In this document: in pieces, positions 26,775 to 33,707 of the stretch
Position numbering within the stretch: the stretch's first letter is position 1
How the letters are laid out: every line of letters starts with the position of its first letter
Source of the DNA: Escherichia phage vB_EcoP_SYGE1
DNA: 39,713 nt
Reading direction: 5' to 3' (one strand)
Sequence record: MW883060
Notes under the pieces: model-generated
Databases searched by the model: none
The model's input: the letters and a program-made list of their open reading frames with translations, nothing else
Told to the model about the DNA's origin: nothing
Made by a program: the position numbers and the translations under genes

Positions 26775-27071
26775 GAAATCGTCAAGAATCCTGTCAGAAG
26801 TCAGTGTCGTTGGACCAGTCTGTTGACTCTGAGTGTGACTCTTCTTCCCCTGAGTAACTTGAGGGTTCAAGCCATCCGGTTTCCTTGTTGTATTCCATGT
26901 AGCCAGCAATACCAGTATCGCCAGTAAAGCGGCACTTGAGAATACGAACGAGGACAAGATTAGGCATATCACCTTGCTGGTTACGCTCAAGGGCAATAAT
27001 AGTATCAGATAGTTGGCGAAGTGCGCCAGAACCACGTAGGTCAGTAATAGAAACAGGGCGACCTTCCTCAT
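26760..27071 (-). CDS. gp4.2-like overlapping ORF (103 aa), out of frame with the 3' end of gene 4
   Basis: ATG start; very hydrophobic product; same position and overlap relationship as T7 gene 4.2. Coding status unproven. Confidence 0.3.
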
Positions 27072-28494
27072 GTGCTTTACCTTTGTCTGGGTTCTTAAGG
27101 TGACAAATTACGACCAGCACCACCCCAGTTGACTTAGCGAACCCTTTGAGCTTGGTCATCAGGTTGTCAATCATCTTACGCTCATCTGATTCACCAGAAG
27201 CGGACACGACGATTGAGATGTGGTCTAGAATGATTACGTCACAGCCCAAGCCTGAGCGCATGTAGGCCAGCTTAGCTAGAAGCCTGTCGGTCTCAGCCTC
27301 AGCGAATGAGTCATATAGGTGGAACGCATCGTTGCCGAACAGTTCATCGAACCATTGGTCGAACTTACCGTTCTCAATAATCTCTCTCTTTAGTGAGTCG
27401 GATTGCCTCAGTCGGACACGGTTGTGTAGACCTATAAGGTCCTCAGCGGTCTCCTCAACGGACTCCTCAAGCATCGCTAAGCCTACCTTCTTGCCCATCG
27501 CTGTGCCCCATTGGAGAGCTTGTTGACGGACGAACGTTGACTTACCCATACCAGAACCGGAAGTGACCATAATGACTTCACCGCCACGGGCACCTAAGGT
27601 CTTATCGTTGATACCAGTGCAGCCACTGAAAAGTAAACCTACGGATTCCTCTGACGATAGGTGCTCACGGATTCGTTCACGTAACGAAAGAGCCGATACC
27701 ACACCATCAGGAATCCAAGGACCAGCATTCCACACTTGCTCCATGATTTCACGGTCGTGACCATTTAGGTGACACTCGTTGGCATCCTTACACGGAAGAA
27801 CTGCCACTCGTACCTTACCAGCAGGTAGAACCTGTGCGGCCTCTTCGACTGCTTTGCGTCCTGCTTCGTCCATATCGAACATCAAGATAATCTGTTCGAA
27901 CTGGTCAAAGTATTCGTAGTTGGCAGCGCATGTCTTCTTAGCGGCAGAGGCACCGTGACCCAACGACACTACAGGATACTTACAGTCTTGAAGTTCCATC
28001 ACGGTAAGCATGTCGATTTCACCTTCTGTGACGACAATCTTCTTACCACCATTCCACAGGTGCTTACCGAACAGAGCATCGCTCTTATGGCTTCCAGTGG
28101 TCTTAAAGTTCTTATCTTTATCTCGAACCTTCTGGCTCACAATGTTACCGTTCTGGTCCCGATAGTCAGCCACTTGGTACATCACACCGTCTACTTTGGC
28201 AGTCCAGTAGCCAGCCTTCTGACAGGTTTCCTTGGAGATTCCCCGCGCAGTTAACGCAGAGTAACGTCCATTGGACTCCCCAAAGTTCCATACGTTGTAT
28301 GTCATTGGTTTACCTCCACCGACTATACGTCTTCTTGATGATAGCTCCTGTTTGCGTTCTTCTGAGGCTGGAACCCTGTGCTCACATACAAAGCAAAATT
28401 GATGACCGTCAGAATACACTGAGTTACCATCAGAAGACCCACAGTTCTCGCAAGGAGCGTGATATAGGAAAATACTATCTTGCTCTAATTCCAT
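26794..28494 (-). CDS. Primase-helicase gp4A (566 aa); gp4B helicase from internal ATG at 28303..28305
   Basis: Near identical to recalled T7 gp4 from MTYNVWNF onward (Walker A GSGMGKST). The N-terminal zinc-binding region (CENCGSS...CFVCEH) appears divergent from T7. The internal start has a GGTGGAGG SD. Confidence 0.95.
27383..27405 (-). promoter_or_regulatory. Phage RNAP promoter phi4c, internal to gene 4
   Basis: Minus strand reads ...AATCCGACTCACTAAAGAGAGAGA. Confidence 0.75.
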
Positions 28495-28541
28495 ATGGTT
28501 ATTCCTTAATCAACATTGCGAACAAAGGGAAACCGTTGTGG

Positions 28542-28564
28542 TCTCCCTTTAGTGAGTTCAATTA
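28542..28564 (-). promoter_or_regulatory. Phage RNAP promoter phi3.8
   Basis: Minus strand reads AATTGAACTCACTAAAGGGAGACCACAACGGTTTCCC. Confidence 0.8.
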
Positions 28565-28565
28565 A

Positions 28566-29021
28566 TTATCCACGGTCAGAAGTGACCAGTTCGTTCTTCT
28601 CCCACCAACGCTTAAGGTCGAACGAAGGGCAAGCCTTAGGTGCCACGTCATGATGCGCCCGAAGCACAGCGCCTTCGTACTTAGCCAGCAGTGTGACAAG
28701 CAGTGAGCGGAGGGATTGCATTTGGGCTGGCGTAAAGTTAGCGTTAAACTTACCTTTATCGCCGATACCACCTACAAGGCAGACACCAATAGAGTTGTGA
28801 TTGTAGTCCTTAGCGTGAGAGCCTACAGCCATCTCATCTCGGCCTTCCTCCACAGTACCATCGCGCTTGATGATAAAGTGATACCCCACATCGAGCCAAC
28901 CTTGCTCTTTATGCCACTGGCGAATCTCACGGACACCTACATTCTGACTTGGCTTGGTAGCCGAGCAGTGAACAAAGATTGCGTCAGTAGATTCACGTTG
29001 TTTAAACTGTACACGAGCCAT
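28566..29021 (-). CDS. Lysozyme / N-acetylmuramoyl-L-alanine amidase gp3.5 (also the phage RNAP inhibitor in T7)
   Basis: 151 aa, MARVQFKQRESTDAIFVHCSATKPSQNVGVREIRQWH..., near identical to recalled T7 gp3.5. Confidence 0.95.
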   Translation of the reverse strand: MARVQFKQRESTDAIFVHCSATKPSQNVGVREIRQWHKEQGWLDVGYHFIIKRDGTVEEGRDEMAVGSHAKDYNHNSIGVCLVGGIGDKGKFNANFTPAQMQSLRSLLVTLLAKYEGAVLRAHHDVAPKACPSFDLKRWWEKNELVTSDRG

Positions 29022-29470
29022 TATTTCTTTCCTCCTTTCCTTTTTAATCTATCAAAGGGGACCTTCTTCTTGGGTTCCTTTATCCACTCAGCAGGTATCA
29101 GTTTATCAGCGAACTTAATGCCATGCTTTTCGCAGAACTCTCCATAAGACGTTGGAGAACCTTTGTATAACTTAGTACGTGAGCTTGAGAAGACAATACG
29201 GATGTCTAACTCGGGGTGCTGCTCCCTAATTAATAAGTGCTTCTTTCTATCATCGCTTTCCCACAGACCCTTCGTCTCAACGAATATACCGTTGGGAAGT
29301 AAGAAGTCTGGGGTGTAAGTGTGACTGCTCGCCGGAATTACATAAGGCACTTTCCACTCTTCATACTCGAATTTAATACCTTTTGATTCCAACTGCTTTG
29401 AAACCTTGTCCTCTAGGCCAGAGCGAAACGCTCCAACCTTTCGGATTCCTTTAGCGCCGTAACCTGCCAT
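29021..29470 (-). CDS. Endonuclease I (Holliday junction resolvase) gp3
   Basis: 149 aa from ATG at 29468..29470 preceded by GGGAGGCGAC; MAGYGAKGIRKVGAFRSGLEDK... Confidence 0.9.
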   Translation of the reverse strand: MAGYGAKGIRKVGAFRSGLEDKVSKQLESKGIKFEYEEWKVPYVIPASSHTYTPDFLLPNGIFVETKGLWESDDRKKHLLIREQHPELDIRIVFSSSRTKLYKGSPTSYGEFCEKHGIKFADKLIPAEWIKEPKKKVPFDRLKRKGGKK

Positions 29471-32301: not shown

Positions 32302-32332
32302 AAACGCAGAAAGGCCCACCAGAAGGTGAGCC
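32302..32332 (-). terminator. Early terminator TE for host RNAP (rho-independent)
   Basis: Minus strand GGCTCACC-TTCT-GGTGGGCC hairpin followed by TTTCTGCGTTT, immediately 3' of the ligase gene. Confidence 0.75.
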
Positions 32333-32339
32333 AGTGTGG

Positions 32340-33356
32340 TTACATTTTCTCTTGAGGGTTGTCCTCGGTGCCACGGAAGCAGGTGAAGGAAGGGTGTCGC
32401 AATGAGCCATCGGGTGTTTCTTCCATAAATCCAATCTGGCAAGTCCACCCGTTATAGTAGTCATCGCCATGTTCTTTAACGTTAGCTGTAAATTCATCCA
32501 TTAAGGTGCGAGAGATGTTTGTGGCGTTAACTACACGACCACTCTCAAGAAGCACCTCAAATCCGATGACTTTACCTTCATTTGCTAAACCTTCTGTTCC
32601 CCACACAAGACCCTGAATAATACCATCAGCCTCGTTCTCTGGCTTAAGTTTCCACCAGCCGGACTTCTTACCGCGCTTATAGATGCACATCGGGTCTTTC
32701 ACAATGAGACCCTCATGGCCTTCTTCACGCTTCTTCTCATACAGTTGCTGTAGTTCTACCATATCGTAGACCTCGTAAGATTCAGCCGCTTGCCATTCGA
32801 TTTCAGGGAAGTATTCCTGTAGCAGAGGCAGCATGTTCTTAACGTGTTCCTGCATGAGCAACGTCATGACATCACAGTCTTCTCCAGACTCCACGATGTG
32901 CAGCGGGAGGATAGCGTACAGTTTGACACTCAGACGTTTGGTGTCCAACGCGAACTCAACCTTGGACCCTTTGAGCGGAGGTACACCGCCAACGTCGAAC
33001 TCAAAGTTATTCTTGTTGAGCCACTTGGTGCGCAGTAGGCCAGACCCAGTGTTAAAGTCTACGCCCTTGACCATGAGTTCACCATCGAGCATAAAGCCAT
33101 CTTTGTAGAAACAACGGTCATCGCTCAGCAGACGCTTCCAGCGAACATCAAACCCGTTTAAGTACTCCATCGCCGGAATCGGTTTAGACACACGAGAGAG
33201 CCAGCAGCAGTTAGCAGTATTGTCTACGCAGATGTTACCACGCACACCATCGTACTTAATGTCAGCAATAAGATACCCAGCGTTATCCAGAGCTTTCTTA
33301 ATGGCAGACTCTACGAAAGACACGGCTTTAAACGGGCTAGTCTTAATGTTCATCAT
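32340..33356 (-). CDS. ATP-dependent DNA ligase gp1.3
   Basis: 338 aa with ATGATG start; adenylation motif region IADIKYDGVRG; appears ~20 aa shorter than recalled T7 ligase (359 aa). Confidence 0.9.
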   Translation of the reverse strand: MMNIKTSPFKAVSFVESAIKKALDNAGYLIADIKYDGVRGNICVDNTANCCWLSRVSKPIPAMEYLNGFDVRWKRLLSDDRCFYKDGFMLDGELMVKGVDFNTGSGLLRTKWLNKNNFEFDVGGVPPLKGSKVEFALDTKRLSVKLYAILPLHIVESGEDCDVMTLLMQEHVKNMLPLLQEYFPEIEWQAAESYEVYDMVELQQLYEKKREEGHEGLIVKDPMCIYKRGKKSGWWKLKPENEADGIIQGLVWGTEGLANEGKVIGFEVLLESGRVVNATNISRTLMDEFTANVKEHGDDYYNGWTCQIGFMEETPDGSLRHPSFTCFRGTEDNPQEKM

Positions 33357-33374
33357 AATGTTTATCTCCTATTG

Positions 33375-33414
33375 GTTAAATGACTAAGGCCACTCAATGA
33401 GCGACCTTAAGCAT
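33375..33414 (-). promoter_or_regulatory. Putative RNase III site R1.3
   Basis: taaggccactcaatgagcgaccttaagc matches the recurrent motif; lies between phi1.3 and the ligase start. Confidence 0.4.
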
Positions 33415-33437
33415 TGTCCCTATACTGAGTCGTATTA
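33415..33437 (-). promoter_or_regulatory. Phage RNAP promoter phi1.3
   Basis: Minus strand reads TAATACGACTCAGTATAGGGACAATG. Confidence 0.85.
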
Positions 33438-33707
33438 CTTCCAGTGCTTCAAATCACTGTGAACCTTACGGAGCCATTCCGTCTGTGCGTTACAGCGAAC
33501 GTCTTCGTCTGACTGTTCGAACCTCTTGGATGTTAGCTCTACGCCATTCCGCAAGACCACTCGAAGAGTCTCACCAGCTACCCATCGGCGCTGTGCGTAG
33601 TCTTCGCGTCGATAAGTCTCAACAACCACATCGACAGAATGGTCTTCTCTGAGGCGCTTGATAGCATCTTTGTATGCTGCCAGATTACCACTATATAGAC
33701 GTCCCAT
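33435..33707 (-). CDS. gp1.2-like protein (in T7, inhibitor of host dGTP triphosphohydrolase)
   Basis: 90 aa from ATG at 33705..33707; MGRLYSGNLAAYK... and the ...DLKHWK end resemble recalled T7 gp1.2, but the middle appears divergent. Confidence 0.7.
   Translation of the reverse strand: MGRLYSGNLAAYKDAIKRLREDHSVDVVVETYRREDYAQRRWVAGETLRVVLRNGVELTSKRFEQSDEDVRCNAQTEWLRKVHSDLKHWK

Follow-up and report, generated by a model that had tools for sequence, protein, structure and literature searches.

Mosaicism in the T7 group is classically a matter of collinear, close genomes that differ in discrete blocks, with early genes, tail fibres, HNH genes and small dispensable genes affected above all. T3 was reportedly described by Pajunen et al. 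in 2002 as having arisen by recombination between T7-like and YeO3-12-like phages, and Garcia et al. are said to have compared phiA1122 with T7 in 2003 with regard to T7-group mosaicism. In T-even phages, co-conversion and marker exclusion are caused by free-standing homing endonucleases (PMC2330249, PMC2790892, PMC2988022), and boundaries of exchange adjoining essential genes are sites of nuclease genes (Barth et al., 2023, PMC10448857). One preprint (bioRxiv 10.1101/2025.09.07.674715) regards T7 genes 2.8, 3.8 and 7.7 as homing endonucleases; the literature searched yielded no report that any of T7 gp2.8, gp3.8 and gp7.7 cleaves DNA or homes. The T-even enzymes SegB, SegG and MobE resemble the HNH genes of the T7 group in that a free-standing endonuclease gene lies between or beside essential genes, is polymorphic in presence, and is co-inherited with its flank. 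For the T4 enzymes (SegB, SegG, MobE) cleavage sites and biased inheritance have been demonstrated, whereas T7-group genes 2.8, 3.8 and 7.7 are known here from their comparative signature. Tracts in the T7 group are short (200-450 nt) and mostly downstream, whereas HEG islands exceed 10 kb (PMC10448857).

The window (the whole stretch analyzed, 39,713 nt) is the complete, already published genome of Escherichia phage vB_EcoP_SYGE1 in reverse orientation; its ligase, gp1.2, gp1.7 and tail-fibre proteins match those of SYGE1 exactly, and its terminal repeats are 170 bp and exact, as published. Its nearest relatives were JeanTinguely/Bas64-like phages at ~96% identity (JeanTinguely: 95.8% nt identity, 96.7% coverage), and T7 was 93.2% identical across 91.4% of the length. 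SYGE1 is a natural Teseptimavirus; judged from these comparisons, its backbone comes from the JeanTinguely/Bas64-like lineage, not from T7. The initial annotation had described divergent blocks in genes otherwise near-identical to T7. The blocks were real, with heterogeneity far above chance, but the near-identity was wrong, given the genome-wide value and a background of only 94-98% in the interval itself (positions 26794-33707).

JeanTinguely (Bas64, MZ501081), EmilieLinder (Bas103) and AnnaIndermaur (Bas104), of the genus Teseptimavirus, have the gene order of SYGE1. They share with it the primase zinc-domain allele, the gp1.2 class, the ligase codon 113-146 allele, the gene-5 intron with its HNH ORF, and empty 3.8, 5.3 and 7.7 sites. 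They differ in lacking gene 2.8, in their gene 3 allele (70-77% identical), at the gp1.7 centre (64-77%) and ligase 3' end (67-94%), and in the distal tail fibre and RNAP 3' end. T7 (NC_001604) is also collinear (RNAP 98.5% aa identical) and shares the gene 2.8 + gene 3 module (98-100%) and a 54-nt 5' extension of gene 1.7. It carries genes 1.4, 3.8, 5.3 and 7.7, all lacking from SYGE1, and has no gene-5 intron. Its alleles differ from those of SYGE1 at the primase zinc domain, in gp1.2, gp5.5 and the tail fibre, in the ligase patches and at the gene 8 5' end.

Mismatches to T7 per 100 nt were ~12-fold over-dispersed (variance/mean = 12.4, chi-square P ~1e-126); the genome-wide variance/mean was 11.7, and patchiness was not confined to 26794-33707. 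Informative sites among SYGE1, T7 and JeanTinguely fell into 110 runs, compared with 350 ± 13 in shuffles. Values of dS vs. T7 ranged from 1.4 to saturated within the primase N-terminus, gp1.2 and ligase patches and from 0.13 to 0.33 outside. The rise was 5- to >10-fold in the blocks of gene 3, the primase, gp1.2 and the ligase, where dN/dS stayed at ≤0.36. The primase, gp1.2 and ligase 113-146 patches matched alleles of other natural phages at 97-99% identity. Because dS jumps, near-identical alleles occur elsewhere and informative sites are clustered, the patches in the primase N-terminus and gp1.2, and the two in the ligase, were read as recombination. For these the proposed exchange among T7-group phages stood; it did not stand for the gp1.7 and capsid N-termini. 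No independent genome was uniformly similar to SYGE1, uniform identity to one known genome having been named as the refuting result; such identity exists only in the trivial sense that the window is a deposited genome itself. Blocks called imported are exchanged alleles, and either partner genome could be the recombinant. The collections searched gave no donor above 91% for three patches (the 3' ends of the ligase and RNAP genes and the centre of gp1.7), and there we infer recombination from dS and incongruence only.

The primase region comprised the following features.

26794..28494, minus strand: gene 4A primase/helicase, 566 aa (ORF; Pfam Zn_Ribbon_Prim, Helic-prim_T7_N, Toprim, DnaB_C)
28306..28494, minus strand: primase zinc-binding-domain patch, codons 1-63, 'empty-site' allele (nt identity, dS)
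28495..28565, minus strand: gene 3.5-4A intergenic region, unoccupied gene 3.8 (HNH) site (genome comparison with T7)

The gp4A sequence was 99.5% identical (aa) to those of JeanTinguely and IME390 and 95% to that of T7, with 30 differences from T7 (gaps counted) in residues 1-63 and 2 in residues 64-566 (T98I, A390T). The zinc-binding N-terminus, quoted earlier as a divergent peptide, was thus borne out and the peptide was correct. T7 is a misleading yardstick here, as it holds the minority allele at this patch (2 of 12 genomes). Nucleotide identity of the patch was 69% to T7 and 96-99% to JeanTinguely, EmilieLinder, AnnaIndermaur, AV103, IME390 and pO111, and dS over codons 1-63 was 1.38 vs. 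T7 and 0.05 vs. JeanTinguely (remainder of the gene vs. T7, 0.13-0.29). All four Cys were kept, and the zinc ribbon scored above the Pfam cut-off. T7 nt 11221-11585 (gene 3.8) had no counterpart in SYGE1, and tblastn of SYGE1 with gp3.8 gave no primary match, the sole match being a weak cross-match to SYGE1 gene 2.8.

The early genes at the other end of the interval were resolved as follows.

33435..33707, minus strand: gene 1.2 (dGTPase-inhibitor family), 90-aa allele class (Pfam PF10922)
32340..33356, minus strand: gene 1.3 DNA ligase, 338 aa, fine-scale mosaic (Pfam DNA_ligase_A_M, DNA_ligase_C)
32919..33020, minus strand: ligase patch, codons 113-146 (dS 2.5 vs. T7, 0.04 vs. JeanTinguely)
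32343..32486, minus strand: ligase C-terminal patch, codons 291-338, orphan allele (dS 2.6 vs. T7, 0.66 vs. JeanTinguely)
32048..32188, minus strand: 141 nt between the ligase gene and gene 1.6 that T7 lacks (94-100% to JeanTinguely, EmilieLinder and AnnaIndermaur only)
31159..31740, minus strand: gene 1.7 (nucleotide kinase family) long ORF, 193 aa (Pfam DUF3310; identical to QUD16321.1)
31720..31725, minus strand: A6 run where T7 has A5, putting the T7-type gene 1.7 start out of frame (T7-type ATG at 31751-31753)
31471..31620, minus strand: gp1.7 central patch, codons 41-90, T7-class allele with no close donor (dS 0.33 vs. T7, 1.42 vs. JeanTinguely)
30941..31141, minus strand: small-ORF DNA 3' of gene 1.7, found in Bas-like phages but not in T7

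gp1.2 shared 33 of 90 positions with T7 (38-40% aa identity) and was 96.7% identical to JeanTinguely, 81-84% to Kayfunavirus versions and 57% to T3. Its divergence had been placed in the central region; every part after residue 11 was divergent, which amounts to whole-allele replacement. It matched PDB 2MDP and 7U65 at full length (T7 gp1.2 and gp1.2-Dgt structures), and with PF10922 this upheld the suggestion that one patch lies in a host-interaction protein family.

Within the ligase the best-matching genome switched every 90-180 nt. The length of 338 aa (359 in T7) and the clustering of differences agreed with the initial annotation; the clusters spanned residues 113-144 and 291-310 and came with gaps of 2 and 19 aa. 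The internal deletions it had named did not hold: they are better read as T7-specific insertions, because none of the six other genomes aligned at the protein level has the 19-aa segment. Flanking dS vs. T7 was ~0.3 at codons 113-146, where the T7-class allele was common to T7, IME390, 13a, N30 and phiA1122. The top database match of the C-terminal patch was 87.6%, and a 30-mer from it had no match in IMG/VR.

The gp1.7 N-terminus had also been listed as divergent. Its nucleotides are T7-like, and the 1-nt A-run frameshift moves the ORF start to another ATG. The true gp1.7 patch was central (codons 41-90), T7-like and unlike the closest relatives, with a top database match of 91%. In the small-ORF DNA beyond the gene, T7 lacked 100 + 65 nt, and identity was 94-98% to JeanTinguely, EmilieLinder, AnnaIndermaur and AV103.

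Between the primase and gene 2.5 lay a block of T7 type.

28566..29021, minus strand: gene 3.5 lysozyme/amidase, holding the right-hand breakpoint of the T7-like block at ~28900-28940 (informative-site switch)
29021..29470, minus strand: gene 3 endonuclease I, T7-type allele (Pfam Phage_endo_I)
29451..29870, minus strand: gene 2.8, free-standing HNH homing-endonuclease-like gene (Pfam HNH_3, 26.6 bits, cut-off 24.8)
29871..30569, minus strand: gene 2.5 ssDNA-binding protein, ordinary background, ~96% to all

Genes 2.8 and 3 (~28940-29870) were 98-100% T7-like, and the nearest relatives were 72% identical or lacked the DNA. At the breakpoint in gene 3.5 informative sites changed from T7-type to JeanTinguely-type; the breakpoint on the other side of the block falls at ~29870-30050. 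Gene 3 was 98.7% (aa) and 98-99% (nt) identical to T7 and 70-77% (nt) to nine genomes lacking gene 2.8; its dS was 0.055 vs. T7, and synonymous sites were saturated vs. JeanTinguely. gp2.8 was 97.8% identical (aa) to T7 gp2.8, and the gene was missing from 10 of 13 genomes compared. The T7-type 2.8+3 module occurred at >90% identity in 113 of 1147 database records, all others being <80%; among the matches listed, the >90% band consisted of T7 strains throughout. As a separate observation, this block was the strongest patch in the interval and ran the opposite way (T7-like in a non-T7 backbone), and it was absent from the list first drawn up.

Occupancy of HNH sites was also compared outside the interval, where three further features were relevant.

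19694..19993, minus strand: gene 8 first 300 nt, 'empty gene-7.7-site' allele (nt identity)
23188..23787, minus strand: group I intron in DNA polymerase gene 5 (600 nt with no T7 counterpart)
23308-23703, minus strand: HNH ORF within the gene-5 intron (Pfam HNH_3, 61 bits)

gp2.8, gp3.8 and gp7.7 all carry Pfam HNH_3. In 13 genomes, which are phylogenetically non-independent, occupancy of the three sites was perfectly linked to a divergent downstream allele with sharp limits (2.8 with gene 3, 3.8 with the primase zinc-binding domain, 7.7 with the gene 8 5' end). Downstream-flank identity for same vs. different occupancy was 96.6 vs. 71.3 (2.8), 96.3 vs. 68.1 (3.8) and 95.3 vs. 81.8 (7.7), across 66 genome pairs (permutation P = 0.0004-0.0016, kinship among genomes ignored); control segments 150-300 nt further on differed little or not at all by occupancy. 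In gene 8, nt 1-300 were 82% identical to T7 and 95-96% to other empty-site genomes, and nt 301-600 were 94-98% identical to all. The 13th genome, an independent one from a metagenome that lacks gene 2.8, fitted the prediction (gene 3 71-78%, zinc domain 97-98%). T7's gene 3.8 and zinc-domain allele were found together in T7 and the Yersinia phages YpsP-G and phiA1122, and 13a and 64795_ec1 had a common third zinc-domain allele adjoining other HNH ORFs. In SYGE1 only 456 nt separate the occupied T7-type 2.8+3 module from the empty 3.8 site, which goes with the common zinc-domain allele. The gene-5 intron matched Rfam RF00028 (37.1 bits, E = 1.3e-7) under the gathering score. In the compared genomes no occupancy-linked flank divergence was seen at the gene 5.3 site (PD-(D/E)XK family) or the gene-5 intron HNH; therefore the linkage rule is not general, and gp5.5 alleles assort independently.

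The mosaic is very probably the product of divergent alleles exchanged by recombination, through HNH-coupled blocks, small-gene replacement and ligase conversion, with other causes for gp1.7 and the capsid. Most blocks that stand out against T7 would be old divergent alleles, passed between co-infecting phages of the T7 group through homologous recombination, with tracts of ~100 to 1000 nt, and each SYGE1 locus would keep whichever allele its recombination history left. In blocks coupled to free-standing HNH genes, occupancy of the site goes along with the allele at the 5' side of the essential gene next downstream. By intronless homing, the HNH endonuclease would cut the endonuclease-less allele inside the downstream gene, and repair from the endonuclease-carrying genome would copy the endonuclease gene with its cleavage-resistant flank. 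The occupancy-linked flanks fit this known mechanism of homing-endonuclease co-conversion, from which we infer endonuclease cleavage as the likely driver of these blocks. Small host-interaction genes would be replaced as whole alleles; gp1.2 is such a case inside the interval, and elsewhere in the genome gp5.5, the tail fibre and the 0.3-0.7 region are others. The ligase would have undergone short-tract gene conversion. The divergent alleles have probably kept their function, because dN/dS is low (≤0.27 in imported blocks), the zinc ribbon and four Cys are kept, and gp1.2 matches PF10922 and both PDB structures.

It is possible, though rather doubtful, that recombination was real and the HNH genes were passive markers, possibly inactive as proteins, with exchange by the general phage machinery (gp2.5, gp3, gp4, gp6) and no site-specific cleavage; indel heterology and a divergent flank would then suppress local crossovers and preserve linkage. 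Suppressed recombination in a 30% divergent region predicts the linkage equally well, and gene 5.3 and the intron HNH had no flank effect. T7 gp3.8 also gives a nuclease-independent benefit against the GAPS4 defence, according to a preprint (bioRxiv 10.1101/2025.09.07.674715), and therefore retention of an HNH gene need not rely on homing. However, divergence lay mostly in the downstream gene and stopped within 200-450 nt, a better fit to a cleavage site and co-conversion tract, and polarity was the same at three independent sites. The shared zinc-domain allele of 13a and 64795_ec1 beside differing HNH ORFs likewise looks as if successive endonucleases had hit one site.

That the patches arose in place, through locally faster or diversifying change in segments that interact with the host or bind DNA and with no foreign DNA, is very improbable overall, although rapid change is plausible in gp1.2 and the tail fibre as host-interaction proteins, and although it applies to one segment.

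17191..17268, minus strand: capsid gp10A codons 1-26, locally fast-evolving (dS 0.20, flank 0.21; dN 0.22)

The capsid (16228-17268) falls outside the interval to which it had been assigned. Its first ~25 aa were divergent as described, with 9 differences from T7 in residues 2-23 and 0 in 24-148, but recombination was not supported, because dS equals that of the flank and dN/dS is ~1.1; this indicates local relaxed or diversifying evolution and no import. Change in place was refuted for the blocks in gene 3, the primase, gp1.2 and the ligase by the jump in dS, at dN/dS ≤0.36, and by shared alleles, which for primase, gp1.2, ligase 113-146 and gene 3 occur at 96-99% in phages whose flanks relate differently. 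Hardly any probability attaches to sequencing error or to a chimera assembled from short reads of a mixed lysate (e.g. a Bas64-like phage and laboratory T7). The genome of this environmental isolate was built from Illumina MiSeq reads, a T7-like block sits inside a non-T7 backbone, and the gene 1.7 frameshift in a homopolymer could be a sequencing error. But the block is not laboratory T7, because it differs from T7 at 8 of ~690 positions across gene 3 and the 3' portion of gene 2.8, with 8 more differences in the next 175 nt; all other allele junctions (e.g. empty 3.8 site with zinc-domain allele) recur in independently sequenced phages and a metagenomic contig, and essential ORFs are all intact.

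Exchange of divergent alleles places SYGE1 with classical T7-group mosaicism, the same in kind and with its own combination of alleles. On the comparisons made here, its patches relative to T7 are the ordinary outcome of gene swapping among T7-group phages, genome-wide.

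Every long open reading frame of the window is on the minus strand and the gene order is that of T7; collinear tblastn matches were obtained for 47 of the 51 T7 proteins queried, and the RNA polymerase (RNAP) is 98.5% identical to that of T7. Membership in Teseptimavirus was supported by this gene order, the single-subunit RNA polymerase, the gp4 primase-helicase, the gp5 polymerase and the T7-type structural genes, and the database matches (91-96% identity) belong to the same genus. An exact terminal direct repeat of 170 bp was identified, and the 23-nt T7 promoter consensus (TAATACGACTCACTATAGGGAGA) matched nine times at ≤3 mismatches (0 expected). 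Conserved phage promoters were considered as marks of crossover; between 26794 (gene 4 stop) and 33707 (gene 1.2 start) there is a single strong match, at 33415-33437, in a scan for which class II promoters are too divergent to be picked up. The ligase, gp1.2, gp1.7 and tail-fibre proteins match those of Escherichia phage vB_EcoP_SYGE1 exactly. SYGE1 originated from dairy-farm sewage, was sequenced by MiSeq, and was published in 2021 in a mastitis cocktail (PMC8248792).

The initial annotation had described divergent blocks in genes otherwise near-identical to T7, and had taken the pattern as recombination within the T7 group. Near identity does not describe this genome: SYGE1 and T7 are 93.2% identical over 91% of the length, and two BASEL phages, JeanTinguely (Bas64; 95.8% over 96.7%) and EmilieLinder (95.4%), are closer. 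Mismatches to T7, counted per 100 nt, were strongly clustered in 26794-33707 (variance/mean 12.4, p ~1e-126); as the whole genome gave 11.7, this interval is not special. At sites where SYGE1 matches either T7 or JeanTinguely but not both, 110 runs were counted vs. 350 ± 12.7 in shuffles, and two further genome triplets behaved similarly. Sliding-window identity was calculated for seven genomes, later for twelve, and blocks that were poor against T7 were excellent against another phage, with the converse also seen. No uniformly similar independent genome was found in the phage collection searched without SYGE1's own record, where the best matches were 95-96% identical with clear drops; the sole uniform match was the deposited SYGE1 record itself. 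A metagenome contig, YOKO23, encodes an identical gp1.2, yet is 95.4% identical over the stretch compared and is without SYGE1's own patches. The patchiness is real but was overstated, and T7 is the wrong yardstick for it.

Blocks in the interval (minus strand) and their nucleotide identities.
28200-28494, N-terminus of the primase (gene 4A): 66-76% to T7; 99% to JeanTinguely, EmilieLinder, AnnaIndermaur (a further BASEL phage) and AV103
~28940-29870, genes 2.8 and 3: 98-100% to T7; in the closest relatives gene 3 is ~72% identical and gene 2.8 is absent
32800-33000, ligase: 75-82% to T7 versus 97-98% to other phages
Gene 1.2, from 33707: most of its length cannot be aligned with T7 by blastn; 94-99% to JeanTinguely and EmilieLinder

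Synonymous (dS) and non-synonymous (dN) divergence was estimated by the Nei-Gojobori method. The primase patch was as first described, with 30 differences from T7 in residues 1-63 of gp4A and only two beyond, and dS vs. T7 was 1.38 in codons 1-63 and 0.13-0.29 in the remainder of the gene. The N-terminal Cys4 zinc ribbon (CxxC...CxxC; PF08273, 30.1 bits, cut-off 23) spans residues 11-38, and in the alignment the divergent allele retains its four Cys as well as the DGH motif's His/Asp. The ligase was also as first described in length (338 aa vs. 359 in T7, with gaps of 2 aa and 19 aa), and its differences are grouped at residues 113-144 and 291-310. In codons 113-146 dS vs. T7 was 2.5 (flanks ~0.3), and the best-matching genome among the twelve switches every 90-180 nt within the gene, which indicates short conversion tracts. 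For gp1.2, dS vs. T7 was saturated and the divergence is that of a whole-allele swap. Against JeanTinguely, dS was 0.04-0.14 in the primase, gp1.2 and ligase blocks. The T7-like block of genes 3 and 2.8 is a converse patch that the initial annotation had overlooked; in gene 3, dS was 0.055 vs. T7 and saturated vs. JeanTinguely.

Across the primase, gp1.2, ligase and gene 3 blocks dS was raised 5- to >10-fold, dN/dS was ≤0.36, and identity to other phages was 97-99%, the ligase C-terminus excepted. The Nei-Gojobori estimates show that old alleles were imported here, as opposed to rapid evolution of segments of the proteins. Positive selection as a general cause of the patches was ruled out by the dN/dS analysis, with the exception of the capsid N-terminus. 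Contamination by laboratory T7, or a chimeric assembly, was rejected as the source of the T7-like block, which differs from T7 at 16 positions. In the collections searched, no donor above 88% was found for the ligase 3' patch and none above 91% for the gp1.7 central patch; a 30-mer from the orphan ligase allele had no exact match in IMG/VR. The last ~35 codons of the RNAP gene (gene 1; 34048-34137, minus strand, 90 nt) are 75-80% identical to each of the 11 genomes compared; ~30 nucleotides but just 2 amino acids are changed. This segment resembles an import whose changes are nearly all synonymous, and the collections searched yielded no donor for it.

The 90-aa gp1.2 of SYGE1 belongs to the widespread class (81-84% to Kayfunavirus versions, 57-60% to T3 and YeO3-12), to which the 85-aa class of T7 is 37.5% identical; both classes fall in PF10922. 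The SYGE1 protein matched the family over its full length (46.2 bits, cut-off 22), and aligned end to end, over residues 1-90, with PDB 2MDP and 7U65 (T7 gp1.2 and gp1.2-Dgt; E ~1e-9). Only 33 of 90 positions are in common with T7 gp1.2, which bears out the divergence initially described, so inhibition of Dgt is a plausible function assigned from family membership. T7, IME390, 13a, N30 and phiA1122 carry the T7-class gp1.2 together with the T7-class patch at ligase codons 113-146 (33508-33687 and 32878-33057, respectively), and the intervening ~400 nt are largely conserved in the set of twelve; the pairing could reflect lineage structure or co-adaptation.

Recombination accounted for three of the five proteins for which it had been proposed (primase, gp1.2 and ligase), and the N-termini of gp1.7 and the capsid protein have other explanations. 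The supposed divergent block of gp1.7 vanishes at the nucleotide level. SYGE1 and T7 share a 54-nt 5' extension of gene 1.7 that is absent from the other three aligned genomes (JeanTinguely, AV103 and pO111), but an A-run (31720-31725, minus strand) has six A's in SYGE1 and five in T7. The T7-type start (31751-31753) has a good Shine-Dalgarno sequence and overlaps the gene 1.6 stop, but the A6 run puts it out of frame, so that it opens only 35 codons. The annotated 193-aa open reading frame starts instead at ATG 31740, with no obvious ribosome-binding site, and its protein begins MVQLGKKENQP where T7 has MGLLDGEAWEKENPP. Either the A6 run is a true frameshift mutation or the deposited sequence contains a homopolymer error.

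In the capsid protein, which lies outside 26794-33707, the clustering itself was borne out: residues 2-23 differ from T7 at nine positions, and residues 24-148 match it throughout. Import was not: in codons 1-26 dS was 0.20 (flanks 0.21) and dN was 0.22 (flanks 0.00). Because dS equals that of the flanks and dN/dS is ~1.1, the estimates indicate that the N-terminal tail has undergone local relaxed or diversifying evolution and is not an imported block. Two more clusters of differences from T7, not listed in the initial annotation, are present in this gene (16228-17268, minus strand), at residues 149-174 (dS 1.2 vs. ~0.2 in flanks) and 264-287, and these are either imported or hypervariable surface segments.

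Variation was also noted at other loci. The tail fibre (3655-5607, minus strand, 650 aa) forms a singleton cluster in a collection of 15 billion proteins, and its distal part, especially 4050-4500, found few or no nucleotide matches among the first seven genomes examined; SYGE1 lyses 16 of 20 test strains (PMC8248792). The H-NS inhibitor family protein gp5.5 (22713-23012, minus strand) is 44% identical to that of T7 in amino acids, and its gene is 98% identical to that of EmilieLinder and 88% to that of pO111. At least three or four gp5.5 allele classes occur, and these assort independently of the neighbouring PD-(D/E)XK gene 5.3.

Each of the three T7 endonuclease-like genes absent from SYGE1 (3.8, 5.3 and 7.7) adjoins a low-identity block in the global alignment with T7. 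Genes 2.8, 3.8 and 7.7 are free-standing HNH genes (HNH_3: 26.6 bits for gp2.8 of the window, cut-off 24.8; 56 for T7 gp3.8; 49.8 for T7 gp7.7), and they are present or absent at fixed sites between conserved genes of close relatives. Sites were scored as occupied or empty in twelve natural genomes (SYGE1, T7, JeanTinguely, EmilieLinder, AnnaIndermaur, AV103, IME390, pO111, 13a, N30, 64795_ec1 and phiA1122), and the flanks were compared in all 66 pairs.

Gap sizes at the three HNH sites in twelve genomes, and mean downstream-flank identity (%) of pairs with the same or different occupancy.
Gene 2.8 site, upstream of gene 3 (endonuclease I): gap 3 nt versus 400 nt; same 96.6, different 71.3
Gene 3.8 site, upstream of gene 4A (primase zinc-binding domain): gap 256-346 nt versus 592-797 nt; same 96.3, different 68.1
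Gene 7.7 site, upstream of gene 8: gap 14 nt versus 391-405 nt; same 95.3, different 81.8

Occupancy of the three HNH sites is linked to the allele of the downstream essential gene, and the linkage is polar. Label permutation gave p = 0.0004-0.0016 at these sites, and downstream flanks of same- and different-occupancy pairs were separated near-completely at three of four sites. Control segments 150-300 nt further on showed little or no difference by occupancy; upstream flanks had no effect at 3.8 and smaller effects only at 2.8 and 7.7. At the 2.8 site, SYGE1 and T7 carry a T7-type gene 2.8 and gene 3 alleles that are 98-99% identical, nine empty genomes have the other gene 3 allele (70-77% to the SYGE1/T7 type), and pO111 has a different 2.8 and a third gene 3 allele. 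At the 3.8 site, gene 3.8 in T7 and phiA1122 accompanies one zinc-domain allele (98%), other HNH open reading frames in 13a and 64795_ec1 accompany a second (91%), and the eight empty genomes carry that of SYGE1 (90-99%). Identity between these groups is 66-70%, and the three alleles are ~68% identical in nucleotides inside genes that are elsewhere mostly 93-99%. The first 300 nt of gene 8 at the 7.7 site are 86-100% identical within an occupancy class and 80-83% between classes. A thirteenth, independent genome from a metagenome was as predicted, with an empty 2.8 site, gene 3 at 71-78% and the zinc domain at 97-98%.

Among the matching records of the phage collection, 113 of 1147 contained the T7-type 2.8+3 module at >90% identity and all else was <80%; the band above 90% held T7 strains only, among the matches listed. 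Gene 3.8 of T7 and its zinc-domain allele occur together in T7 and Yersinia phages, and apart only in laboratory deletion strains. In SYGE1 the T7-type 2.8+3 module lies just one gene (456 nt) from an empty 3.8 site with a non-T7 zinc-domain allele. The modules are thus free to re-assort, with each HNH gene tied to its downstream flank. In 13a (9353-10055) and 64795_ec1 (10571-11367) the flanks and the zinc-domain allele (91%) are common and the HNH open reading frames differ (160 aa and 104 aa), which suggests that one endonuclease gene was replaced by another at the same site.

A further HNH_3 open reading frame (23308-23703) lies in a 600-nt insert (23188-23787, minus strand) that splits gp5 at residues 653/654. 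The insert, a putative group I intron, matched the Rfam group I intron model RF00028 over its full length (37.1 bits, E 1.3e-7, below the gathering score of 50), and in relatives the annotation joins the CDS. Of the 11 compared genomes 7 contain it; T7, IME390, N30, 64795_ec1 and phiA1122 are without it. No occupancy-linked flank divergence was seen for the insert in the compared genomes, in contrast to genes 2.8, 3.8 and 7.7.

The best-supported explanation is homologous recombination among co-infecting T7-group phages, channelled at the three loci by free-standing homing endonucleases. The endonuclease would cut the endonuclease-less allele within the 5' portion of the essential gene that follows, and the break would be repaired from the endonuclease-carrying genome, so that the endonuclease gene and its resistant flank are copied together; we infer this cleavage for gp2.8, gp3.8 and gp7.7. 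The proposed steps are those of intronless homing and marker exclusion, established in T-even phages for the Seg and Mob endonucleases (PMC2330249, PMC2790892, PMC2988022), and the arrangement is in line with nuclease genes that adjoin essential genes at boundaries of exchange (PMC10448857). A serious alternative is passive linkage, in which crossovers would simply be suppressed in the 30%-divergent flank beside an indel. Occupancy-linked flank divergence was also looked for at the gene 5.3 site in the twelve genomes and was not seen; gp5.3 is a PD-(D/E)XK protein, of a nuclease family other than HNH. T7 genes 2.8, 3.8 and 7.7 have been treated as homing endonucleases in a preprint that describes a nuclease-independent anti-defence effect of gp3.8 and contains no homing assay (bioRxiv 10.1101/2025.09.07.674715), and no site-specific cleavage or biased-inheritance data for these genes were found in the searchable literature.

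With homing endonucleases as the preferred reading, we suggest tentatively that genes 2.8, 3.8 and 7.7 may be active and that each may travel with a cleavage-resistant allele; their targets would be in the initial 200-450 nt of the essential genes downstream (endonuclease I, the zinc-binding domain of the primase and portal gene 8). The deep allelic polymorphism of these segments might then be kept by selfish-element conflict between co-infecting phages and not by host adaptation. If so, SYGE1, with its 2.8 site filled and its 3.8 and 7.7 sites empty, would serve as a natural tester strain.

As a discovery the mosaic carries little weight: phenomenon and mechanism were both known before, block-wise recombination in the T7 group for a long time, and the genome is already published. 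T7 is a poor neutral yardstick, and some of the 'odd' patches are traits of T7 itself, among them its primase allele linked to gene 3.8 and the insertion in its ligase. Protein divergence needs a check at the nucleotide level: of the listed patches, one proved to be a frameshift of 1 nt and one had no synonymous excess. A single result is of modest use: three uncharacterised HNH genes of the T7 group are cleanly linked to the alleles of adjacent essential genes, a coupling tight enough to yield a cheap, testable prediction of where the T7 endonucleases cut. It also suggests that, when closely related phages share a host, each could exclude markers of the other.
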